Shown: positions 106 through 14,601 of the stretch, piece after piece
Position numbering within the stretch: the stretch's first letter is position 1
How the letters are laid out: each line of letters opens with the position of its first letter
DNA from: an uncultured Saprospiraceae bacterium
Lineage (GTDB): Bacteria > Bacteroidota > Bacteroidia > Chitinophagales > Saprospiraceae
Direction of reading: 5' to 3'
NCBI GenBank assembly: GCA_965367335.1
Contig: CBDUIU010000001.1
Coordinates: forward strand, 1 to 28,878
DNA length: 28,878 nucleotides
Notes under the pieces: model-generated
What the model was told of the DNA's origin: nothing
The model's input: the letters and a program-made list of their open reading frames with translations, nothing else
The model's database searches: none
Position numbers and translations under genes: made by a program

Positions 106-873
106 TTATCGCAAAATCTCTGTCCCTCCATTTTTCACCATATTACTCACATTACAGATATAAACCTGGGCACTACTTTTTTCTACCACTGAAAAGGCAT
201 TATCCAGCTTGGGAATCATGCCATCCCGGATGACCAATTGCTCCTTTAGCTCCCGATACGAGGTTTGATCAAGGAGGGGAATCAATGCACCTTGTTTATC
301 CAGCACACCTGGTTTGTCCAGGCATAAATAAAGGCGCACATTAAAATAGCCGCTCATGGTTTTAGCTAAGCAGGCAGCGATCGTGTCGGCATTTGTATTG
401 AGTAGCTGCCCTGAACCATCATGGGTAATCGCACAAAAGACAGGGCAAATATCCGCTTGCAACAATGCACCGATGGCCTTAGCATTTACCTGTTTAACAT
501 CCCCCGCAAAGCCATAGTCAACTTCTCCAACCGGTCGCTTTTCTGACAGAATACTATTGAGATCCGCTCCGCTAAGTCCGAGTGCGTTGATACCACAGGC
601 CTGCATTTCCGCGACCAGTGTTTTATTGATCAACCCAGCATAGACCATCGTCACGACCTCCATGGTAGCAGCATCAGTGATCCGACGACCCTGATGCATC
701 CGAATTGGGATATCCATTTTTTCGCTAAGTACCGAAGCCTGATTACCTCCACCATGTACAAGGATCTTTGAGCCCTTTACCTGGGCAAAGGTTTCGATGA
801 GCCTTTGGCGATTTTCAGCTACTTCGACGACGCGACCTCCAACTTTAACAATGCTTATTTGTGGTCTTTCCAT
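106..873 (-). CDS. argB: Acetylglutamate kinase
   Basis: IVKVGG, LVHGGG, GRRITD, and NTNADTIA motifs of the amino-acid kinase family; arg operon context. Confidence 0.95.
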   Translation of the reverse strand: MERPQISIVKVGGRVVEVAENRQRLIETFAQVKGSKILVHGGGNQASVLSEKMDIPIRMHQGRRITDAATMEVVTMVYAGLINKTLVAEMQACGINALGLSGADLNSILSEKRPVGEVDYGFAGDVKQVNAKAIGALLQADICPVFCAITHDGSGQLLNTNADTIAACLAKTMSGYFNVRLYLCLDKPGVLDKQGALIPLLDQTSYRELKEQLVIRDGMIPKLDNAFSVVEKSSAQVYICNVSNMVKNGGTEILR

Positions 874-912
874 GAGTATCTATTTTGATTAGCCTTAAAG
901 AGAACAACCCAT

Positions 913-1860
913 TCAAAGCAAGTCTTGTAAACAATGCCACAGCACTGATTGAGCTGCATAAGTTCGATTATTGGCTTGTTCTATGGCGAGTGAACGATTG
1001 CTATCTAACACTTTACCCGCAACCACAACATTACGGCGAACAGGCAAGCAGTGCATGAAATAGCCATTGTTAGTCCTGGCCATTTTTTCCGGGGTAATCA
1101 TCCAGGACGGATCGGTTGACTTAATTTTACCGTAATCAGAATAGCTTGACCAGTTTTTTACGTAAACAAAATCTGCATCCGCCAAAGCGGCGTTTTGGTC
1201 ATGGTAAACGGGAATATCTTTAGCAAATTCCGGAGCTAAGTCATACCCTTCCGGATGAGTGATGCTCAACTCCACTTTGGCCTGCCACATCCACTCCAGG
1301 AATGAATTTGCAACAGCTTGTGGAAGTGCTTTGGGATGAGGCGCCCAACTGAGTACAACCTTTGGCCGGTCTACTTTTTTAAACGTCTCAATGGTCAGCC
1401 AGTCAGCCAAAGATTGCAGAGGATGACGGATAGCCGATTCTAAACTAATTACCGGGACACTGGCAAACTCCTGAAACTTACGAATAATGCGATCCTGATA
1501 ATCTGATGTTTTATTGGTCAAAGAAGGAAAAGTCCGCACAGCGATAATGTCGGCATACTGGCTAATGACGGCAGCGGCCTCCCGAATGTGTTCGGCTTTA
1601 TCGCCATCCATAATAACTTCATCTTCGAATTCGAGTTGCCACCCTTGGGTTGCATTCATACTCATGACAGCAATTCCCAGGTTTTGGGCCGCACGTTCGG
1701 TACTCAGGCGGGTACGCAGACTGGGATTAAAGAAAACCATCACCAGGGTTTTATTTTTCCCAATTTGTTGTTGGGAAAATGGAGTAATTTTGAAGTCAAT
1801 GGCTTTCTTCAACAGTCCTTCTGGATTTTCGACGTCATTGAGTGTGATAAAATTTTTCAT
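913..1860 (-). CDS. argF: N-acylornithine carbamoyltransferase (ArgF' type; residue 89 = Ala suggests N-succinylornithine specificity)
   Basis: FFNPSLRTR carbamoyl-phosphate motif (SLRT rather than STRT), HPLQ, WAPHPKALPQAVANSF, YVKNWS and FMHCLPVRRN, all typical of AOTCase/SOTCase. Confidence 0.93.
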   Translation of the reverse strand: MKNFITLNDVENPEGLLKKAIDFKITPFSQQQIGKNKTLVMVFFNPSLRTRLSTERAAQNLGIAVMSMNATQGWQLEFEDEVIMDGDKAEHIREAAAVISQYADIIAVRTFPSLTNKTSDYQDRIIRKFQEFASVPVISLESAIRHPLQSLADWLTIETFKKVDRPKVVLSWAPHPKALPQAVANSFLEWMWQAKVELSITHPEGYDLAPEFAKDIPVYHDQNAALADADFVYVKNWSSYSDYGKIKSTDPSWMITPEKMARTNNGYFMHCLPVRRNVVVAGKVLDSNRSLAIEQANNRTYAAQSVLWHCLQDLL

Positions 1861-1946
1861 GGATTGTGGTATTGTGATAGCACAGTAAAAATTATTGTTA
1901 GATATAAGTAGTTCACGAAATTAAACCACTTACTGCATCAAAAAAC

Positions 1947-3095
1947 TCAAATCGTCACCGAAGAGAATTGGCGTACCGCTTGTGCAAGTTTTTCCAAAAA
2001 ACAATCGACTTCCTTTCTCTGGACATTGAGCGGCGGTAACAATCGCATTACGTTTGCGCTTTTAGCAGAGCCGGTGAAGACTTTCTCTTCGTATAATAAA
2101 TGCTTTCTAAGTTCCGCAACCGGCATCGGAAAAGACAGGCCGATCATAAGCCCCTGGCCACGCACTTCCGTTATCCCGGGAATGAGTTCCAATTGAGCTT
2201 TCAGATACTTTCCTAACTGATCCGCATGAGGCAATAAATTCTCTTTGTCCAAAACTTCCAACACAGCTAATCCGGCAGCACAAGCAAGGTGATGACCGCC
2301 GAATGTCGTACCCAGCAAACCATAGCTGGCTTTATAATCCGGATGAATGAGGACACCACCAATGGGATAACCATTCCCCATACCTTTAGCGACGGGAATC
2401 AAATCAGGTTCTATTCCGGCATGCTGAAAAGCAAAGAATGCGCCGGTACGACCATAACCGGATTGGACCTCATCCAGGATCAAAGCGGTACCATGTTTTC
2501 TACAAAGGGTTTGCAGGCTTTGTAAAAATTCTGGTTGAGGAATATAGATACCACCGATACCCTGCACCCCCTCGATGATCACCGCACAAACATCCTCCTG
2601 TTTCAGTACCTTTTCCACTCCTTCCAGATCATTCAAATCAAAAAATAGTGCCTCAAAACCCTTGTTCAAAGGCGCCTTTATTTTTTCATTATCGGTGATG
2701 TTTACCGCAGCGGAAGTCCGGCCATGAAACCCACGATTAAAGGCAACGATTTTGGTACGGCCATTTTTGAAAGACGCTAGTTTTAGCGCATTTTCATTGG
2801 CCTCAGCACCGGAGTTACAGAGAAACAACTGATAGCCATCCAATCCGGAAAGTTTACCTAGTTTTTCCGCCAACTCTATTTGCAAATTATTTTGCACGGA
2901 GTTCGAATAAAACACCAGTTTTTCTACCTGCTCTTTTATCCGTTTGACAAAATGTGGATGACTATGCCCGATTGAGATTACTGCATGTCCACCATAAAAA
3001 TCAAGATATTCCTGCCCGGACTCATCATAGACATGACAACCTTTGCCTCTGACCGGAGCTACGTTGAAAAGAGGGTATACATCGAAAAGTTTCAT
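1947..3095 (-). CDS. argD: Acetylornithine/succinylornithine aminotransferase (class III PLP)
   Basis: YLDFYGGHAV, NSGAEANE, FHGRT, EGVQG, LILDEVQSGYGRTG and AKGMGNG (PLP Lys). Confidence 0.93.
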   Translation of the reverse strand: MKLFDVYPLFNVAPVRGKGCHVYDESGQEYLDFYGGHAVISIGHSHPHFVKRIKEQVEKLVFYSNSVQNNLQIELAEKLGKLSGLDGYQLFLCNSGAEANENALKLASFKNGRTKIVAFNRGFHGRTSAAVNITDNEKIKAPLNKGFEALFFDLNDLEGVEKVLKQEDVCAVIIEGVQGIGGIYIPQPEFLQSLQTLCRKHGTALILDEVQSGYGRTGAFFAFQHAGIEPDLIPVAKGMGNGYPIGGVLIHPDYKASYGLLGTTFGGHHLACAAGLAVLEVLDKENLLPHADQLGKYLKAQLELIPGITEVRGQGLMIGLSFPMPVAELRKHLLYEEKVFTGSAKSANVMRLLPPLNVQRKEVDCFLEKLAQAVRQFSSVTI

Positions 3096-3139
3096 TTTTT
3101 TTAGTTTAATGATAAGTCCAAAAACCTGTTAGGGTAAAC

Positions 3140-4105
3140 TTAGTAAACGATAGACTTTAATTGAAGTCCCATCTTTTCATTCAGTCCGAACATTAAATTC
3201 ATGTTCTGTACGGCCTGTCCGGAAGCCCCTTTTAATAAATTATCGATCATGCTGATGACGAGCCATTGGTCATCAATTTTTTTGCCGTATAAAATACACT
3301 TGTTTGTATTGACGACTGACTTGAGTGAGGGGTTTGTGTCAGAAAGCCAAACGAAAAGTTCATCCTGATAAAATTCGCGATACAGCTCTTGCAGCTCCGC
3401 TTCACTTTGCGCCAACTTCGTATAAGCCGTAGCAAAAATACCTCGCGGAAAATCACCTCTGACCGGCAAGAAATGAATGGGCGCCACTTCCTCTGTTTGC
3501 AGTTGCTTCAAACTCTGCCGAATCTCATCCATATGTTGATGGCGAAAAGGTTTATAGACGGAAATATTGTTATTTCGCCAACTAAAATGAGTCGTCTCAA
3601 CCGGCTTCACACCTGCACCAGTAGACCCTGTCAACGCTTGCACATGAACAGGCTGACGCAATAGTTTTGCTTTAGCCAGAGGCAGCAAAGCCAGCTGGAT
3701 AGCGGTTGCAAAACAGCCACAATTAGCAATGCGGTTACTTTGTTGAATGGATCGACGATTAAGTTCTGGCAGGCCATAGACATAATTATGCTCGGGAGAT
3801 TTGAGTCGAAAATCACGGCTCAGGTCAATGACCTTGGTTGTAGACGGTACATTATTTTCTGCCAAAAAAGTTTTTGACTGACCGTGTCCCATACAGAGAA
3901 AAATCACATCTACCTCTACCGAAAATTGGTCACTAAAGTACAGGTCAATATCGCCCAGCAAATCCGGATGGACATCATGTAAATGTTTTCCGGCCTGGCT
4001 CCGGCTATGGACAAAACTCAGGTCCACTTGCGGATGTTGTAACAACAACCGAATAAGTTCGCCGCCGGTATAACCAGCCCCACCTATTATTCCTGCTCTG
4101 ATCAT
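3140..4105 (-). CDS. argC: N-acetyl-gamma-glutamyl-phosphate reductase
   Basis: GGAGYTGGEL Rossmann motif, IANCGCFATA catalytic Cys, GSTGAG and IDNLLKGASGQAVQNMN. Overlaps the argG stop by 4 nt. Confidence 0.96.
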   Translation of the reverse strand: MIRAGIIGGAGYTGGELIRLLLQHPQVDLSFVHSRSQAGKHLHDVHPDLLGDIDLYFSDQFSVEVDVIFLCMGHGQSKTFLAENNVPSTTKVIDLSRDFRLKSPEHNYVYGLPELNRRSIQQSNRIANCGCFATAIQLALLPLAKAKLLRQPVHVQALTGSTGAGVKPVETTHFSWRNNNISVYKPFRHQHMDEIRQSLKQLQTEEVAPIHFLPVRGDFPRGIFATAYTKLAQSEAELQELYREFYQDELFVWLSDTNPSLKSVVNTNKCILYGKKIDDQWLVISMIDNLLKGASGQAVQNMNLMFGLNEKMGLQLKSIVY

Positions 4106-5313
4106 AATACTTCCTCTTTTTTATTGGCAACTTGTTGAACCGATTGATAAATACGGTTCTGATTTGCCATGATTTTTATAAACCCTTTCGCCTCTTCTCC
4201 GGTCCAGGCAAGGTTCATTTCGCCATAGCTACCAAAACGAGATTGCATCAGATCATATGGAGATTTGATACCGATCAGTTCAAACCGATAAGGTAGCAAC
4301 CTGACTTCTACCGACCCGCTAACACTTTGTTGGGTATCTTCCAGAAAAACTTCAATGTTTCGCATCACCGGATCGAGAAATTGGCCTTCATGGAGTAACA
4401 TTCCATACCAATTCCCCAGTTGTTCTTTCCAGTATTGCTGCCATTTGGTTAGCACATGTTTTTCCAGTAATTGATGTGCTTTGATCAAAATCATGGGAGC
4501 GGCGGCTTCGAAACCGACCCGGCCTTTGATCCCGATAATCGTATCCCCTACATGTGTATCTCTTCCGATCGCATAGGAAGCGGCCAGTTGTTGCAGGGCT
4601 TTGATTAGTTCCGTTGGATGGCCATATTTCTCATCATTCAAGCCAACGGGTTGCCCTTTTTCAAACAATATATTTACAGTCATTTCCTTTTCCTGGCTTA
4701 ACTGACTAGGCCAGGCTTCTTCGGGCAAAGATTGGTGAGAAGTTAGCGTTTCTACGCCTCCGACACTGGTTCCCCAAAGCCCTTGATTGATGGAATATTT
4801 GGCTTTCTCCCAGTTAAAATCAAATCCCCTTTCCTGTAAGTACTTCACCTCAGCTTCCCGGGATAACTGCAAATCCCGGATAGGACTAATGATTTCCAGG
4901 TTCTGGCCGAGGATAAGAAATGCCAGGTCAAAACGAACCTGATCGTTACCTGCCCCCGTACTTCCATGCGCCACTGCATCCGCCTTGATCCCGTTAGCAA
5001 ATCTGGCAACTTCCATGGCCTGAAAAGCCCGTTCCGCAGAGACAGAAAGCGGGTAGGTTTGATTTCGTAACACGTTACCGTAAAGCAAAAAACGAATACA
5101 TTGATCATAATAGGTTTGGACGGCATCAACAACCTGGAAGCTTTTAGCGCCAAGGGCATAAGCGCGCTGTTCCATCTCGTGTAACTCTTGTTGAGAGAAA
5201 CCGCCCGTATTAACAGTAAGCGCATGCACCTCACAGTTTTGATCCTGGGAAAGGTATTGAATACAGAAGGAGGTGTCGAGGCCTCCGGAATATGCTAAGG
5301 CTACTTTTTTCAT
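4102..5313 (-). CDS. argG: Argininosuccinate synthase
   Basis: LAYSGGLDTS, AHGSTGAGNDQVRFD, YSINQGLWG and KGRVGFEA. Confidence 0.97.
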   Translation of the reverse strand: MKKVALAYSGGLDTSFCIQYLSQDQNCEVHALTVNTGGFSQQELHEMEQRAYALGAKSFQVVDAVQTYYDQCIRFLLYGNVLRNQTYPLSVSAERAFQAMEVARFANGIKADAVAHGSTGAGNDQVRFDLAFLILGQNLEIISPIRDLQLSREAEVKYLQERGFDFNWEKAKYSINQGLWGTSVGGVETLTSHQSLPEEAWPSQLSQEKEMTVNILFEKGQPVGLNDEKYGHPTELIKALQQLAASYAIGRDTHVGDTIIGIKGRVGFEAAAPMILIKAHQLLEKHVLTKWQQYWKEQLGNWYGMLLHEGQFLDPVMRNIEVFLEDTQQSVSGSVEVRLLPYRFELIGIKSPYDLMQSRFGSYGEMNLAWTGEEAKGFIKIMANQNRIYQSVQQVANKKEEVL

Positions 5314-5417
5314 GATAAATATTTGTATTAAAAAGGCTTCACCCTCAATTGTTAGAAATTTCTAATCCTTTAAACATCTGTGGTGATTTAATGTCAATCA
5401 GGAAAGGATGGTTAAAT

Positions 5418-6044
5418 TCATTTTGAATCCGTTTTATTTTCAACTACCCTGGGAGAATTTGAATTAATGACCTGGGAGGATTCAAACTCAGCTTTTGAAG
5501 GAGCAAGCATACCGGTACAAAGGCAGAGTTTCCTTTCGTTGCGTTGCAGGATATCATAGTTCGGGCAAGTTTGGCAGCCTTTCCAGAAGGTTTCATCCTG
5601 AGTTAATTCGGAAAAGGTAACCGGCCGGTAGCCAAGGTCAGAATTAATGCGCATAACGGCCAGGCTAGTGGTAATTCCAAAGACCCTGGCATTTGGGTAT
5701 TTATCTCGAGCCAATTTAAAGACTTTGGCCTTGATCGCTCTGGCTAATCCTTGTCCGCGAAATTTGCTGGCGACGATTAGCCCGGAATTAGCGACATAGC
5801 GAGAATGGCTCCAGGTTTCAATATAGCAGAAGCCGGCGAGCTCTCCGTCGGGAGAAAAAGCGATAACTGCTTTGCCCTCAGCAATCTTTTCTCTGATGTA
5901 TTCCGGAGAGCGACGCGCGATGCCAGTACCTCGTTCCTGAGCGGAGACCTCATACAATTTACAGAGTAATTCCGCACAGGGAAAGTGTACTGGCTGGGCA
6001 TTGTCTATGATAAAATTTGAATCCACTTTCTTAATTTTAAACAA
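5418..6044 (-). CDS. Bacteroidota-type GNAT N-acyl-glutamate synthase (ArgA role); true start may be GTG at 6026
   Basis: First gene of the arg operon. RGTGIARRSPEYI, acyl-CoA motif A (FRGQGLA), and a C-terminal CQTC...CLC cluster. Role inferred from position and family. Confidence 0.8.
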   Translation of the reverse strand: MFKIKKVDSNFIIDNAQPVHFPCAELLCKLYEVSAQERGTGIARRSPEYIREKIAEGKAVIAFSPDGELAGFCYIETWSHSRYVANSGLIVASKFRGQGLARAIKAKVFKLARDKYPNARVFGITTSLAVMRINSDLGYRPVTFSELTQDETFWKGCQTCPNYDILQRNERKLCLCTGMLAPSKAEFESSQVINSNSPRVVENKTDSK

Positions 6045-6244
6045 TAAAATTACATTCGTTGCAAAATCATTTTACAAACGTGCTATATGATGTAAGGTTT
6101 ACTTGATGTAGCTTAATGAAAGAATTGGTATTCATCCGGGTGCACGACCCAAGCAGGAACAATTCCCGGGAAAAACTATAATATTAAAAATACTACGTTT
6201 TAACTAAGCTAAAAATAATTAGATCTTATTTGGTAGAAACAGAC

Positions 6245-6259
6245 GGGGAAGCACTCCCC
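6245..6259 (-). promoter_or_regulatory. GC-rich hairpin downstream of the Arg-rich leader (candidate attenuator hairpin)
   Basis: mRNA GGGGAG-UGC-UUCCCC followed by GUCUGUUUCU (only a weak U-tract). Confidence 0.45.
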
Positions 6260-6288
6260 TGGATGGGTTATATGTAGGATGTACGCCC

Positions 6289-6372
6289 CTAAGGGCGAGC
6301 ACGAAAACGACGAACGCGGCGGGCTGCTGCGTCAATAGATGAGAAAAGATATGTCGTTTTGCATAAAAACAT
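6289..6372 (-). CDS. Candidate arginine leader peptide MFLCKTTYLFSSIDAAARRVRRFRARP (27 aa)
   Basis: Hand-translated: ATG at 6372, TAG at 6291-6289. Codons 18-26 are CGC CGC GTT CGT CGT TTT CGT GCT CGC. It lies just behind the operon promoter and is below the ORF-track size cutoff. Confidence 0.7.
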   Translation of the reverse strand: MFLCKTTYLFSSIDAAARRVRRFRARP

Positions 6373-6376
6373 AAAT

Positions 6377-6408
6377 CAAAAGTAAGCCGTTTTTTTGGAT
6401 TGTGCAAA
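6377..6408 (-). promoter_or_regulatory. Bacteroidota housekeeping promoter of the arg leader/operon
   Basis: TTTG (6408-6405), 20-nt spacer, TACTTTTG (6384-6377): a full match to the -33/-7 consensus. Confidence 0.8.
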
Positions 6409-6425
6409 GAATAAGATAAAAAGTT

Positions 6426-6475
6426 TTGAGGGTTTTTATTTGTCAACGCTTCGCCAACGGAATAAAAACCCTCAA
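6426..6475. terminator. Long hairpin just after the MFS stop, insulating the arg promoter
   Basis: TTGAGGGTTTTTATT ... AATAAAAACCCTCAA is a perfect 15-bp inverted repeat. Confidence 0.65.
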
Positions 6476-6479
6476 CTTT

Positions 6480-7739
6480 TCAAAAACTCATTTCCACCTC
6501 TTCTTTTACCAGTGCTTCCTCGGAATCTATTCTCTGACGTCCCATCATCACAAACCCCCAGGTAGCCAACAAGGTGAATCCCCCCAGAACATACCAAAGT
6601 GTAGCGTAACTAAATTGCTCTGCCATCCGCATCCCAAAAGTTGGAGCGATGATAAACGCTAAGGAATACGACATTCCGTATGCGGCCATGTATTGACCAC
6701 GGTTAGCATCGTTACAGCGATTCATGGCAAAAGCATTAGCGAAAGGCATCATGAGGATTTCGCCGATAGTAACAAGTACAACAGACAAGATGGCTACAAG
6801 GAGCCATACCGGCAACCAGTTAAAGATTAAATAAGATATCCCAATCAATGCCGTACCTATCCCAGCCAGAACTAAGTTGCTATATCTTTTTTCTAATCCG
6901 TAAACGATAGGCATTTCAAGCACGGCAATCAATAATCCGTTCGTGGCCATTAATATGCCGATTGTATCCTCATCAAAATGCATTTCTGTTTTGAAGAAAA
7001 CCGGAATGGTTGAAAACAGTTGCATAAATACGATGGCATTCAGTAACACAAACAGCAAGAACCGCATGTATACCGGATCTTTAAAAGGTGATAAGACCGC
7101 TTTTTTTACCTTATCCACTTCTTTAATCTCATCCTTCTTTTCTTTAATCTTTTTTGGTGCTAGTACCTGACGAAATAACAGGGCTCCAAAAACACAAGTC
7201 AATCCATCTGCCCAAAACAAATAATCGTAGCTCCAGTAATAAGCCATCAATCCGCCAATGGCAGGACCGACGCCAAAGCCCATATTGATCGCCAACCGAA
7301 TCAGTGAAAGCGAACGCGTACGATTTTCGGGTTTGCTATAGGCGGCAACAGCAGCAAGGTTAGCCGGACGGAATGCATCCGCTACTACTGCCAAGGCAAA
7401 AATAGCAAGACAAAAAAGCCAGAATGTTTTAATCCAAATCAGCACCCAGAAAAATACACTACTGGATAATAAGGTCCAGAACATAACATTATAATAACCA
7501 AACCGGTCCGTAAGGTGGCCGCCCAAATAAGTTCCTAACAATGACCCTGCACCAAAGACGCTCATTATAGTTGCAGCCTCTCCCATAGTGAGGTGGAGCT
7601 GAGTAGTCAAATAGACCGTAAGAAAAGGAATCACCATAGTACCTGACCGATTGATCAGCGTAATTAAAGATAACCACCAAATTTCAGGAGAGAGCCCCCG
7701 AAAAGATTTTGTGTACTGCCGAGTAAGATGTTTTAACAT
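6480..7739 (-). CDS. Major facilitator superfamily transporter
   Basis: About 12 hydrophobic segments, motif A GGHLTDRFGY, and RTRSLSLIRLAINMGFGVGPAIGG. Confidence 0.93.
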   Translation of the reverse strand: MLKHLTRQYTKSFRGLSPEIWWLSLITLINRSGTMVIPFLTVYLTTQLHLTMGEAATIMSVFGAGSLLGTYLGGHLTDRFGYYNVMFWTLLSSSVFFWVLIWIKTFWLFCLAIFALAVVADAFRPANLAAVAAYSKPENRTRSLSLIRLAINMGFGVGPAIGGLMAYYWSYDYLFWADGLTCVFGALLFRQVLAPKKIKEKKDEIKEVDKVKKAVLSPFKDPVYMRFLLFVLLNAIVFMQLFSTIPVFFKTEMHFDEDTIGILMATNGLLIAVLEMPIVYGLEKRYSNLVLAGIGTALIGISYLIFNWLPVWLLVAILSVVLVTIGEILMMPFANAFAMNRCNDANRGQYMAAYGMSYSLAFIIAPTFGMRMAEQFSYATLWYVLGGFTLLATWGFVMMGRQRIDSEEALVKEEVEMSF

Positions 7740-10686: not shown

Positions 10687-11724
10687 CTAAGCGGTAGCGG
10701 CAGCGGCTGAGCTTTTTACTTTAGCAGACTTCACCGTCTTAATGATCCGAGCAGTTACTAAGTAAGGATTAGCATTAGAAGCCGGGCGACGATCCTCCAG
10801 GTATCCAATCCAAGTTTGTGATACATTCAATGGAATACGGATAGAGGCACCACGGTCAGAAACACCATAGCTAAATTGATCAATAGATTGTGTTTCGTGA
10901 GCACCGGTCAGTCGCTGATCATTATTAGATCCATATACCGCAATATGCTCATCGTGAACTGGACGGAAAGCTTCACAAATACTCATAAACAATTCTTTCC
11001 CTCCTTCTTCACGCATCGGCGTATTGGAAAAATTAACGTGCATACCTGAGCCGTTCCAATCACCTTTAACTGGCTTAGGCTGGATATCTACATTAACACC
11101 AAACTCTTCACATATCCGGTATAATAAATAACGAGATAAGATCAAGTCATCAGAAGCTTTCTTAGGTCCTTTGCCAAAACATTGGTACTCCCATTGTCCT
11201 AACATTACTTCTGCATTGATACCTGTAATACCTAAACCAGCATCCAGACATGCATCCATATGTGCTTCGACGATATCGCGGCCAGCAACTTTTGTATTAC
11301 CTACACCGCAGTAGTAGGGTCCTTGTGGAGCTGGATAACCATCAACAGGAAAGCCTAATGGCTTGCCAGTCTCACCGGTCATTACATACTCTTGTTCAAA
11401 ACCAAACCAGAAGTCGTCATTGCCGTCTTCAATCAATGCCCGATGGTTGGTAGCATGAGGTGTACCGTCTGCATTAAATACTTCGCAAACAACCAGGTAA
11501 CCATTGATCCGAGCTGAATCGGGGTAAACTGCAACCGGCTTTAACAAACAATCAGAAGAGTGGCCTTCCGCTTGCTGAGTAGAGCTGCCGTCAAATGACC
11601 AATCGGGCAATACGTCCAATTCACCATCGTAGTTATCAAATGCCAAAACTTACGTTTTGCTTCTTAAGTTAGCTTCAGGTTTGTAACCGTCTAGCCAGAT
11701 GTACTCAAATTTGTACTTTGCCAT
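10687..11724 (-). pseudogene. glnA: Glutamine synthetase type II (GSII-like) interrupted by an in-frame TAA at codon 25 (real nonsense allele or sequence error)
   Basis: ATG 11724 gives MAKYKFEYIWLDGYKPEANLRSKT, then TAA (11652-11650), then VLAFD...PDWSFDGSST in the same frame. Downstream GS motifs are intact: FGFEQEY, GINAEVMLGQWEYQ, DWNGSGMH, RLTGAHET, DRGASIRIP, YLEDRRPASN. Confidence 0.85.
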
Positions 11725-11943
11725 TGTAATCAAGAATTTATTAATTTATAAAAAAGCTTTTTTCCCTATTTATAAGGCTGTGCCTTTGTTATTATGGATT
11801 TTTATGCTTCGCTTTGCGAACCATTTTATGAGTTTTAACCTTAGGGGGTTCGCGCCTGAAAAATTTGATGTTTCAGGATTTGCTAGTCCGACAACGTGAA
11901 CCTCGCGTTAGCCCTGTTAAGTTAAAGCCCCTTTTTCACCCTT

Positions 11944-13041
11944 CTAAAAAGCATACATCGCTGCCATAATAAAAGCCGGAGAGGTTCCCGTAGCTTCGCC
12001 GTCCGCATCAAAGAAGACATCCTTGTCCGCAATATCTATCCGAAATTCCGGAATGATCGTTAACTGATCTATTTTGATATTTGCAGATAAGGTCAAATCA
12101 ATAATGCTATTGTCAGCAACGCCAGAGATCAAGCCATCGTCATCACCGATATATTCACCTCGAACTCCAAACAATAAGCTTTCGCTTACGGTATAATTAG
12201 CGTATAATGCTGCACCAAACCAGGACGCATTGTCCCCTTCATCCGGATTCAGGGTTTTTACCGTAGTATTTAAGCCTAAGCCAAAAGATTCCGTAGCCTG
12301 AAAAGTCGCTGTCAAATCAATTTGATTTTCCATGATATCTCCTGCTATTTCACTCTCTTCAGCTTTACCTCCGATAAAGTTTAAATAAGCACCTAGCTTA
12401 TCATCACTATAAGACAACTGAGCACCAAAGTGTTTACCTGGTACAACATCCATCTTAGCATCGGTATCATTAAAGACGCCGAGCATAATGCCAAATTTTT
12501 CAGACACCGCATAGTCTGCTTTCAGACCGGTGTGGTAAAAAGGTCCATTTGAAAACATGTACGAGGTACTGTAGTTAATGTTATCCGGTGCATCAATTAC
12601 TTCATAACCGACATGGGTACCATAGTTTCCAAAAGTAAATGTCAAGTTCTCTACTGGTGTATACGTAACGTATAACTGTTTGATAGCAGAGAGGGTCGTT
12701 CCAGCATAACCATTGGCCACTTCAGCACGAGGGCCCACGGCAATATCTGCTTTGAATCCTACTTTACCTTCTTTAGCAAAAACGACATTCGCCATGCCCA
12801 GGGAAAAAGAATTATGCGCTTCGGTAAAACTTGTAGGAAACGCTTCTTTGTTGGTAAAATAAGCATAGTAACCATCGACAAATCCGCTAATGGTAAATGA
12901 AGGTTCAACTTCAACTTCAGTTTGTTCAGCCACCGTTGTGGTTGAAGGAACGAGGGGCTCGGTGCCCACATCCGCCATGTCCTGCGCGTTCAATACATTT
13001 AACGATAACAGTAACAAGGCAATAAGTGTAAACTTTTGCAT
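11944..13041 (-). CDS. Outer-membrane beta-barrel (putative porin, BBP2-like)
   Basis: N-terminal signal peptide, SGFVDGYY, alternating amphipathic strands, C-terminal aromatic (MYAF); lies between amt and glnA. Confidence 0.78.
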   Translation of the reverse strand: MQKFTLIALLLLSLNVLNAQDMADVGTEPLVPSTTTVAEQTEVEVEPSFTISGFVDGYYAYFTNKEAFPTSFTEAHNSFSLGMANVVFAKEGKVGFKADIAVGPRAEVANGYAGTTLSAIKQLYVTYTPVENLTFTFGNYGTHVGYEVIDAPDNINYSTSYMFSNGPFYHTGLKADYAVSEKFGIMLGVFNDTDAKMDVVPGKHFGAQLSYSDDKLGAYLNFIGGKAEESEIAGDIMENQIDLTATFQATESFGLGLNTTVKTLNPDEGDNASWFGAALYANYTVSESLLFGVRGEYIGDDDGLISGVADNSIIDLTLSANIKIDQLTIIPEFRIDIADKDVFFDADGEATGTSPAFIMAAMYAF

Positions 13042-13261
13042 AAGACAAGCAGTTTGGAGCCAAAGAGTCTTTGATAAAAAATCAATTTCAAATTAGCTCA
13101 GCGTTAAAAAATCTGATTTTTAAAACACCGGAGTAGATCCGGATGGTTGAAATCAGAAAGACCGCTTGCTTACACAAATAAGGTATTCAGTATTTCAAAT
13201 ACGACCTATTTTGCGTAACTTTGTTTTGCGATTCAGGAAGGCGGTCTTTCCGTTTTCTTGA

Positions 13262-13304
13262 AGAAAAGGGGCTCCTGGCATAGTTAGCGCTAACCAGGAG
13301 TCTC
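13262..13304 (-). terminator. Intrinsic terminator after amt
   Basis: mRNA GAGACUCCUGG...CCAGGAGCCCC followed by UUUUCUU. Confidence 0.65.
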
Positions 13305-13350
13305 CTTATTTGTACAATGTGCAAGTACTAAAACCTAATCTCGAATGCTA

Positions 13351-14601
13351 TTATTCGATGGCTAGGTTGTAGGACGGGGCACTCTCCAATTCTGCGTAGG
13401 CAGCCATGTCATGCTCGGAGTGATCCAAGCCCCTGGCTTCTTCTTCGTCAGATACGCGAATTCCGACGGTTACTTTTAACACGTACATCACCGCGAAAGC
13501 AAAGATGAAAGTAAAAGCACCAATGGCCAATGTACCATAGAGCTGCACCCACAACTGAGCTAACCCCGCTTTAGCACCGAACAATCCTACGGCCAGGGTT
13601 CCCCATATTCCGCATACCAGGTGCACAGAAGTAGCACCTACCGGATCATCCAGTTTAAGGATTTTGTCAAAGAAAACTACTGAAAACGGTATAATTACAC
13701 CGGCGACCAAACCGATGATAATGGAAACACCAGGGGTCATTAAATCTGCACCCGCTGTGATTCCGACCAAGCCTCCCAGGATGCCATTCAACACCATGGA
13801 AAGGTCGTGAGTTTTAAATAATAAATAGCTGGCGAAAAAAGCACCTATAGCACCTGCCGCAGCTGACAGACAGGTCGTTACAAATACCAATGAAACAGCT
13901 GAGGGGTCTCCAGACAACACGGAACCTCCGTTAAAACCAAACCAGCCAAACCATAGTAAAAAAACACCCATAGCAGCCAAAGGCATGTTATGGCCCGGGA
14001 TCGGATGGATTGTCCCATCTTTATCATATTTACCATTCCGTGCACCTAACAATACAATCGCAGCCAAAGCTCCCCAGCCGCCAACAGCGTGGACCAGGGT
14101 AGAGCCAGCAAAATCGTAAAATCCATTTGCATCTAACCATCCGGCTCCCCATTTCCACATTCCGGTAATGGGATAACTGATGGAAACAAATAATATACAG
14201 AATATTAAAAACGGCCCAAGTTTGATCCGCTCCGCTACCGCGCCGGAAACAATAGTACAACATGTAGCCGCAAACATCGCTTGGAAAATAAAGTCAGTGT
14301 AATAGGTATAAGCTCCATCAGCATAAGCGATAGCTTCCCCTTCGGGAAGTGTCAGGCCAAAGCCATCAAAACCGAAAAAAGCGTTGATCGGCTCATCCGG
14401 ATACATCAGATTAAACCCTACAAAATAATAGGTCAACAACCCGATCGCGATAATCATCACGTTTTTAAATAGTATATTGACCGTATTCTTTTTTCTGACA
14501 AATCCAGCTTCCAGAGTAGAGAACCCCAGGTGCATGATAAAAACTAGTACTGTTGCTATAAGCAACCATAGATTATTAGCAGTAAACAATGCCTCATTCA
14601 T
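13351..14601 (-). CDS. amtB: Ammonium transporter
   Basis: FQAMFAAT, IVSGAVAER, DFAGSTLVH (first His), LWFGWFGFNGGS, NGILGGLVGITA and DDPVGATSVH (second His). Confidence 0.96.
   Translation of the reverse strand: MNEALFTANNLWLLIATVLVFIMHLGFSTLEAGFVRKKNTVNILFKNVMIIAIGLLTYYFVGFNLMYPDEPINAFFGFDGFGLTLPEGEAIAYADGAYTYYTDFIFQAMFAATCCTIVSGAVAERIKLGPFLIFCILFVSISYPITGMWKWGAGWLDANGFYDFAGSTLVHAVGGWGALAAIVLLGARNGKYDKDGTIHPIPGHNMPLAAMGVFLLWFGWFGFNGGSVLSGDPSAVSLVFVTTCLSAAAGAIGAFFASYLLFKTHDLSMVLNGILGGLVGITAGADLMTPGVSIIIGLVAGVIIPFSVVFFDKILKLDDPVGATSVHLVCGIWGTLAVGLFGAKAGLAQLWVQLYGTLAIGAFTFIFAFAVMYVLKVTVGIRVSDEEEARGLDHSEHDMAAYAELESAPSYNLAIE

Follow-up and report, generated by a model that had tools for sequence, protein, structure and literature searches.

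A candidate arginine attenuator in front of the arginine biosynthesis operon of an uncultured Saprospiraceae bacterium

The leader open reading frame and its promoter

Arginine biosynthesis is a textbook case of control by a repressor, ArgR. Whether such a pathway may instead be controlled through a leader RNA is the question raised by contig CBDUIU010000001.1 of an uncultured Saprospiraceae bacterium, of which the whole stretch of 28,878 nt, here called the window, was analyzed. On the minus strand a short open reading frame (ORF) with a run of arginine codons lies in front of an operon that begins with a GNAT acyltransferase gene and argG (Table 1). The stop codon of this leader (6291-6289) is separated from GNAT, the first operon gene, by 244 nt, close to the 250 nt given in a preliminary description of the locus, and no argR was found at the operon head, as had been stated there. 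The gene upstream of the leader encodes an MFS transporter and has its own hairpin terminator, so the leader and the arg operon constitute a separate transcription unit. In our judgement, the leader is probably a ribosome-mediated transcription attenuator of the arginine biosynthesis operon, of the trp/his type and tuned to arginine. Attenuation by arginine had been suggested from the ORF itself, and it gains support from a terminator-like hairpin and a competing antiterminator strand that follow the ORF.

The promoter had been described as TTTG-N20-TACTTTTG with an ATG 4 nt later at position 6372, and both coordinates and sequence were correct. TACTTTTG is the sole TAnnTTTG consensus box on that strand of the 450-nt intergenic region, and a box is kept 4-9 nt ahead of the leader ATG in most relatives. 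The sigma-A box is located at -12 to -5 in Flavobacterium psychrophilum (PMC9723704), and the spacing from box to transcription start is 4-5 nt in F. johnsoniae (PMC6847099). From these positions, +1 is predicted at A6372, the A of the leader ATG, and by analogy with the flavobacteria the mRNA is predicted to be leaderless, a possibility already raised in the preliminary description. Arginine codons are absent from codons 1-17 and occupy codons 18, 19, 21, 22, 24 and 26 (CGC CGC CGT CGT CGT CGC), that is 6 Arg in 9 codons and all of them CGY, exactly as first reported.

The chance expectation was estimated from the genome assembly of the organism (4.8 Mb, 878 contigs, 79% complete). Among ATG-started ORFs of 10-60 codons on both strands, 160 contained at least five Arg in 10 codons and 20 contained at least six. 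Only one of these 20, the window leader, has a TAnnTTTG box 1-14 nt upstream, and the expected number of such promoter-linked ORFs is about 7e-4 per 330-nt region. A pattern composed of the hairpin described below plus CATAT likewise occurs only once in the genome. Three weaker promoter-linked Arg leader candidates were dismissed, all being located inside long ORFs, and no convincing leader of near-leaderless layout for another amino acid was found in the window genome. The reverse strand was dropped as a control for Arg-rich ORFs in favour of the genome-wide count, because CG-rich codons are read as Arg on the opposite strand too. The small size of the ORF is the single point in favour of a chance ORF in a CG-rich spacer, devoid of any regulatory role. 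Its uniqueness in the genome, together with conservation and operon linkage across dozens of genera, makes this explanation hardly credible.

Conservation, operon linkage and ArgR

The GNAT protein was searched for in 40 relatives and the DNA upstream of it was inspected. The nearest neighbours of the window GNAT among 80 named loci from public genomes were Saprospiraceae metagenome-assembled genomes (MAGs), 65-69% identical. A short ORF with an Arg run was present ahead of the GNAT-argG operon at all 13 loci of the window's family (L001-L005, L007-L010, L012, L013, L015 and L016), or 12 of 12 when the window's own is set apart. The typical leader ends in ...RRRxxRRRP followed by the stop, and the remaining peptide differs from leader to leader. 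Arg clusters in otherwise variable short ORFs, as foreseen in the preliminary description, were also observed in many other Bacteroidota. At loci outside the window's family, an Arg-rich leader was present in L006 and absent from L011 and L014. Further Arg-rich leaders were found in Lewinella, Haliscomenobacter, Phaeodactylibacter, Cytophagales (e.g. Cesiribacter), some Chitinophagaceae and Sphingobacteriaceae, and in 28-29 of 29 Balneolaceae; Bacteroidales-type loci were without a leader. The sequences of the Balneolaceae and Cytophagales leaders are unrelated to those of the family, the common features being only the Arg-rich ORF and its position.

A covariance model, R1, was built on a 67-nt core extending from the second Arg cluster to the 5' arm of the terminator. 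Of 151 family genomes (genus representatives), 38 contained a match to R1, one in each, and 44 of the 45 non-redundant matches were located 26-285 nt upstream of GNAT on the same strand; the exception was at a contig end. In a set of 24 family genomes, matches were obtained in 10 of the 12 that carry GNAT and in none of the 12 that lack it. The core is thus linked exclusively to this operon. An ATG-started ORF was present in 40 of the 45 family matches. Family leaders contain 4-9 Arg near the C-terminus, and RR(R)-x1-3-RR(R)P recurs among them as a bipartite pattern. Without exception, the reading frame turns the CG-rich run into Arg codons, and it is closed by a stop within the loop of the hairpin or slightly downstream of it, by a few codons. 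In one genome, G271, the leader core occurred twice, as L206 (G271:C293:22215-22280) and L201 (G271:C275), and the sequence downstream of it was identical. The second copy is at a contig end; duplication in the assembly is a more probable cause than another regulated locus.

Some loci have leaders of another appearance. A conserved 28-codon ORF, M(N/K)K(I/T)SLHITS...SPEVRML, with only 1-2 Arg, was observed 240-330 nt upstream of the GNAT-arg operon at Flavobacteriaceae-like loci (L156-L164 and others; f19, genus g57). Conserved tails were also seen in Chitinophagaceae, ...VRP(I/T)PF(W/I)VRR, and in Pedobacter, ...PTSRQNFTPRI, each followed by the stop. As the tail is conserved and Arg codons are few, the mode of sensing may be different in these leaders.

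ArgR was searched for with PF02863 and TIGR01529. Neither was found in the window genome (79% complete), in which no search for ARG boxes was made. PF02863 was not found in any of the 41 genomes of the order sample (the 40 relatives and the window's own), 36 of which are at least 90% complete, and the search was positive in the control, Bacteroides thetaiotaomicron. In 200 Bacteroidota genomes of at least 90% completeness, GNAT was present in 79 and ArgR in 86. ArgR was not found in about 76 of the 79 GNAT-bearing genomes, which agrees with the anticorrelation expected in the preliminary description. GNAT and a clear ArgR occurred together in two genomes only, G070 and G165, both Paludibacter-like by nearest neighbour. 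There, argR is located directly upstream of GNAT, in the place of the leader (C10:12711-13493, L171, in G070 and C6:85392-86198, L174, in G165), and no Arg-rich ORF is present upstream of GNAT. A third ArgR match, in G102, was weak and contained a stop. Leaders without ArgR are found in Balneolaceae, Saprospiraceae, most Cytophagales and a part of the Chitinophagaceae. This agrees with a leader that stands in for ArgR, the distribution being one at clade level with few independent events and not proof of replacement. We lean slightly towards the wider view that the window leader belongs to a large class of arginine-specific attenuators, on leaderless mRNA and with extra conserved parts, which replace ArgR in ArgR-less Bacteroidota (Saprospiraceae and other Chitinophagales, Cytophagales, Balneolales and others).

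RNA anatomy and the proposed switch

An alignment of 20 family leaders and a larger leader set gave a fixed order of parts. The ATG, 4-9 nt past the -7 box, is followed by a strand named alpha, a first ACAUAU box (m1), a variable spacer and the two Arg clusters. The 1:2 hairpin, CGUCGCCC-NUAG-GGGCG, comes next, followed after about 9 nt by a second ACAUAU joined to UAYCC (m2). The G-rich 5' arm of the terminator (GGGUAG-like), its complement and a U/C-rich tail complete the leader. The corresponding elements of the window are given in Table 1.

Table 1. Positions of the leader elements and of the neighbouring genes in the window
Feature	Position	Strand	Remarks
-33 element TTTG	6405..6408	minus	from sequence; TTG/TTTG 19-20 nt before the -7 box in most relatives
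-7 box TACTTTTG (TAnnTTTG)	6377..6384	minus	20-nt spacer after TTTG
Leader ORF, MFLCKTTYLFSSIDAAARRVRRFRARP	6289..6372	minus	27 codons + UAG; ATG 6372-6370, 4 nt past the -7 box
Arg-codon run	6295..6321	minus	two clusters, CGC CGC gtt CGT CGT ttt CGT gct CGC
Alpha strand AAAACGAC	6353..6360	minus	codons 5-7; 8-bp helix with beta in the minimum free energy fold, z -1.8
Beta strand GUCGUUUU	6304..6311	minus	in the Arg codons; partner of alpha
m1 box ACAUAU	6349..6354	minus	+15..+19 from AUG, inside the ORF
1:2 hairpin CGCCC-UUAG-GGGCG	6284..6297	minus	stop in loop; extended stem 6279-6302; -12 kcal/mol, z -2.8
Antiterminator 5' strand GGGGCGUACAUCCU	6276..6289	minus	segment 2 + next 8 nt; predicted to pair with GGGGAGUGCUUCCC, 6246-6259
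m2 box ACAUAUAACCC	6265..6275	minus	ACAUAU part 6270-6275, 16 nt past the stop
Terminator-like hairpin GGGGAGUGCUUCCCC + tail GUCUGUUUCU	6245-6259 + 6235-6244	minus	terminator scan; -7.1 to -7.3 kcal/mol
Hairpin terminator of the upstream MFS gene	6416..6492	minus	long inverted repeat AAAAGUUGAGGGUUUUUAUU...AAUAAAAACCCUCAAAACUUUUU
Regulated operon (putative)	106..6044	minus	GNAT to argB; NCBIfam + Pfam
GNAT acyltransferase gene	5418-6044	minus	first operon gene
argG	4102-5313	minus	
argC	3140-4105	minus	
argD	1947-3095	minus	
N-acyl-ornithine carbamoyltransferase gene (argF')	913-1860	minus	
argB	106-873	minus	

In single-sequence folding, the 1:2 hairpin alone was significant; the z-scores of the whole leader (-1.4 to -1.5), the terminator (-1.3) and the antiterminator (-0.6) were not. 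The hairpin, with arms CGCCC (6297-6293) and GGGCG (6288-6284), includes the last Arg codons and the stop, and the motif was found in 43 of 45 non-redundant family matches. At least 8 leaders have no stop in the loop. Their ORF ends 3-11 codons later (RRPLGRA, RRRPAGRA or RRPIGA before the stop) and the hairpin is kept. Since the stop can move while the hairpin stays, it is the RNA hairpin that is conserved and not the Pro-stop ending. We propose that the 1:2 hairpin acts as an anti-antiterminator, possibly also as a pause hairpin. The ACAUAU of m2 follows it by about 10 nt, which is the usual distance for a hairpin-dependent pause.

The moved stops also bear on another explanation, an arrest peptide with free arginine as its signal. 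With arginine present in the exit tunnel, the nascent ...RRRP would stall the ribosome at the Pro-stop like the fungal arginine attenuator peptide (AAP) or TnaC, and codon supply would not be what is sensed. The R-R-P-stop end is almost invariant in the family, Pro-stop ends terminate slowly, and the Chitinophagaceae, Pedobacter and the Flavobacteriaceae-like group conserve a peptide tail and not the Arg run. In the leaders with a stop 3-11 codons downstream, however, the CGCCC/GGGCG hairpin is kept despite the moved stop, so the RNA accounts for the conservation of RRP and the peptide end does not. Furthermore, the N-terminal two thirds are conserved at the nucleotide level with differing frames, the number and spacing of Arg vary, and the CGY bias is strong. 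Stalling at high arginine would also need to cause termination, for which the geometry offers no obvious route. We consider an arrest peptide very unlikely.

Individual helices were examined with a duplex test, in which the pairing of a leader with its own partner strand was compared to that with the partner strands of other leaders (cognate versus non-cognate). Across relatives, the cognate duplex was favoured between alpha and the Arg-codon region (p=0.0018 and p=0.0086 in two tests) and between the 3' half of m2 and the 5' arm of the terminator (p=0.0105 and p=0.0028 in two tests). A terminator hairpin occurs at the same place in relatives with changed stems and U/C-rich tails, and its arm-against-arm cognate test gave 0 of 20000 permutations. 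Covariation-type evidence from aligned relatives thus supports the alpha:beta helix, the pairing of m2 with the terminator and the terminator helix itself. An alternative nesting, obtained by RNAalifold on a MAFFT alignment, paired segment 1 with the 5' arm of the terminator and segment 2 with m2. It was set aside because its regulatory sign would be wrong.

The m1 box, near-invariant in some 32 of 40 family leaders, falls in two or three different frames (TY, HI, II), which means that it is conserved as RNA. The duplex tests revealed no covarying partner for m1 in Saprospiraceae-type leaders. As a second antiterminator strand it was rejected, with no cognate advantage against the 5' arm of the terminator (p=0.93). 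No conserved complement to the ACAUAU part of either box was found in the window, L002-L022 or L176-L213. In Balneolaceae (L098-L134, f39) and a Cytophagales MAG (L052:1153-1500), an m1 homologue, CAUAGAAUUGA (ACAUAUUACCC in L052), forms a helix with a complementary stretch 100-180 nt downstream, beside a second terminator-like hairpin. This pairing covaries plainly (GAAUUGA:UCAAUUC, GUAUUGA:UCAAUAC, AACAUUGUUCG:CGAACAAUGUU), and because of it the leader class may pass through more alternative helices than the four-segment scheme provides. In leaders of the Saprospiraceae type, no such far-downstream complement was observed (z about 0).

The unexplained parts leave some room for an RNA switch that works independently of translation, in which the helices and ACAUAU boxes bind a protein or ligand controlling the terminator and the ORF is incidental to CG-rich helices. 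Both flanks of the Arg run are paired in naked RNA (alpha:beta and 1:2), and the ribosome model assigns no function to the invariant ACAUAU boxes. On the other hand, the distance from promoter to ATG, the open frame reading Arg and the in-frame stop at or just past the hairpin survive many indels. The Balneolaceae and Cytophagales leaders retain nothing else than the Arg-rich ORF and its position, and no Rfam family matched, the T-box included. Such a switch appears quite unlikely.

In long ORFs of the window genome, 41% of Arg codons are CGY, and six CGY of six in the leader has a p of about 0.005. Of 128 Arg codons in 22 leaders, 113 (88%) were CGY and 122 were CGU, CGC or CGA. CGU, CGC and CGA are read by the inosine-bearing tRNA-Arg(ICG). 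The bias fits the sensing of one tRNA, and it could instead come from the alpha:beta and 1:2 pairings.

The coupling of ribosome position to the two hairpins was modelled by masked folding, in which 29 nt around the ribosomal A site were covered. The naked window RNA folded into alpha:beta, the 1:2 hairpin and the terminator hairpin GGGGAGUGCUUCCCC with its tail GUCUGUUUCU. With the A site at codons 22-24, segment 1 was covered and segment 2 free, a 12-bp helix GGGGCGUACAUCCU:GGGGAGUGCUUCCC of -13.4 kcal/mol was formed, and the predicted probability of the terminator fell from 0.9 to 0-0.2. When the A site was moved to codon 26, the Pro codon or the stop, segment 2 was covered and the terminator was back. 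In the model, this is the logic of a trp-type attenuator. Stall-specific loss of the terminator was also seen in L002 and L010, where the 3' arm is taken by segment 2 and the 5' arm by m2, and in about 13 of 33 family leaders as judged by eye. L004-type leaders, with the stop past the hairpin, switch more simply because the terminating ribosome covers m2. Automatic picking of terminators (Wilcoxon p=0.004) was unreliable, as it often chose the antiterminator hairpin, and was replaced by the redone analysis. The coupling is thus partly resolved at the level of the folding models.

For the attenuator that we favour, we infer that the ORF is translated, that the ribosome stalls on its Arg codons, that its position decides between the hairpins and that the 1:2 hairpin may have a role in pausing. 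The transcript would begin with the A of the leader AUG or immediately beside it, so that a ribosome could load on the 5' end at once. This ribosome would read the six CGY codons, whose two clusters are placed immediately ahead of segment 1 (GUGCUCGCCC) and within it. When charged tRNA-Arg is plentiful, the ribosome would reach the UAG in the loop of the 1:2 hairpin and cover segment 2 (GGGGCG plus a few bases beyond). Without translation, segment 2 would be held by segment 1. With segment 2 covered or held, GGGGAGUGCUUCCCC and the U-rich tail would form, and transcription would stop before GNAT. When charged tRNA-Arg is scarce, the ribosome would stall in the second Arg cluster, covering segment 1 and leaving segment 2 free. 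The freed GGGGCGUACAUCCU would then pair with both arms of the terminator, and RNA polymerase would read into the operon. In relatives the antiterminator would be a composite, with segment 2 on the 3' arm and the m2 box on the 5' arm. The 'anticodon-like' alpha:beta helix and the ACAUAU boxes may point to a step outside the textbook scheme, such as programmed polymerase pausing or a bound factor; pause sites or factor binding are possibilities for the boxes themselves.

Several observations weigh against this attenuator. The ACAUAU boxes and the alpha:beta helix are superfluous in the classical model. The window terminator is modest, with 6 pairs, about -7 kcal/mol, a z of -1.3 and an interrupted U tract, and only about half of the hairpins in relatives have four or more U in the tail. 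No covariation was found between segment 2 and the 3' arm of the terminator (p=0.32, no cognate advantage), and the energy of the GGGGCGUACAUCCU:GGGGAGUGCUUCCC antiterminator did not exceed that of shuffles of the same composition (z -0.6). Equilibrium folding of about 20 of 33 relatives gave no stall-dependent change. In some leaders, m2 is at least 21 nt past the stop, beyond the reach of a terminating ribosome. Finally, a search of public sequencing runs for the window sequence gave matches in three DNA metagenome runs of one study only.

Part of these observations could be accommodated by the same sensor, a ribosome stalled on Arg codons, with another read-out: Rho-dependent termination on the G-poor, C/U-rich stretch past the hairpin, mRNA stability or processing, or loading of later ribosomes. 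About half of the relatives' hairpins are without a good U tract (e.g. AAAUUUCC, CCAUCC), a C/U-rich motif, UUUCCAGAAAUAA, is conserved after the hairpin, and a further 200 nt or so lie between the window hairpin and the GNAT start. Yet a hairpin whose stem changes are compensatory is conserved exactly where the terminator of an attenuator is expected, as is an upstream strand that competes with it, and simple Rho polarity would lower, not raise, expression on stalling. A different read-out is considered unlikely.

The stretch of about 190 nt between the terminator tail and the GNAT start (6045-6234, minus strand) is longer than in most relatives. It contains a possible hairpin, CCCGGG...CCCGG (~6115-6150), and a near-consensus box, TGATTTTG, at 6069-6062 (minus strand), which might be a weak internal promoter. 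Elsewhere in the window (10687-14601, minus strand), a nitrogen-related neighbourhood was observed, consisting of a short glutamine-synthetase-like ORF (319 aa), an OmpL-like porin and an ammonium transporter.

Comparison with known systems

The trpL, hisL, leuL, thrL, ilvL/ivbL and pheL attenuators likewise have a short ORF between promoter and operon with a cluster of codons for the end product. Control codons in a 1:2 hairpin, a predicted antiterminator and putative terminator that exclude each other, and a stop beside segment 2 are further similarities to these enterobacterial systems. The window leader differs in the amino acid, in being predicted leaderless without a Shine-Dalgarno sequence, and in having its Arg codons paired on both sides (alpha:beta and 1:2). 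The composite antiterminator proposed for relatives and the two ACAUAU boxes are also without counterpart in the enterobacteria. The leader would thus work like the trp, his, leu, thr, ilv and phe attenuators, as a variant for arginine.

The Bacteroid-trp leader of Rfam and the leaders of F. psychrophilum are from the same phylum, share the promoter type and likewise have a short ORF and a structured 5' region ahead of a biosynthetic operon. The F. psychrophilum leaders, reported in a transcriptome and its supplement, belong only to ilvE (ilv), hisG (his), trp and aromatic genes, with none for arginine, and the hisG leader has a 5' untranslated region of about 14 nt (PMC9723704), compared to about 0 nt predicted here. 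Against Rfam 15, the window region gave no match better than E=0.08, all of it miRNA or small RNA noise, and no gathering-score match to T-box, Bacteroid-trp, other leaders or riboswitches was obtained at the loci of 20 relatives.

Other arginine-dependent systems resemble the leader in part. ArgR/AhrC with its ARG boxes controls the same pathway, and in the Paludibacter-like genomes argR stands directly before the same GNAT-argG operon, but it is a DNA-binding protein sensing free arginine. For control of arginine genes at the RNA level, the T-boxes of Firmicutes (Seliverstov et al. 2005, PMC1262725) were the only system that we found cited. Arg T-box leaders also read the charging of tRNA-Arg and control a terminator; they differ in binding uncharged tRNA directly, with no need of translation, and no T-box match was obtained here. 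In Salmonella speF orf34 (PMC6386406) and Staphylococcus aureus rbfL (PMC13009471), slowing of the ribosome at Arg codons of an upstream ORF alters expression of the downstream gene. Their targets, polyamine synthesis and a biofilm regulator, are not arginine biosynthesis. rbfL also uses the rare codons AGA and AGG and blocks a downstream ribosome-binding site, whereas the present leader uses the common CGY codons and its proposed read-out is a terminator. The fungal AAP, encoded in the upstream ORF of arg-2/CPA1, regulates arginine synthesis as well. Its conserved peptide responds to free arginine within the exit tunnel by repressing translation, and it has neither an Arg run nor a terminator. 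Arginine is not mentioned in the attenuator survey of Naville and Gautheret (2010), and an Arg leader peptide before arg biosynthesis genes was not found described in the open-access literature; an older description in a subscription journal is possible.

If the proposed mechanism is true, a long-standing gap in the set of amino-acid attenuators would be filled, and the leader would provide a clean natural case of attenuation on leaderless mRNA free of Shine-Dalgarno sequences. For annotation, the covariance model combined with an Arg-rich ORF offers a simple marker for arginine regulons in metagenome-assembled genomes. The proposed attenuator would also explain how the arginine pathway is regulated in large groups of environmental Bacteroidota that lack ArgR.

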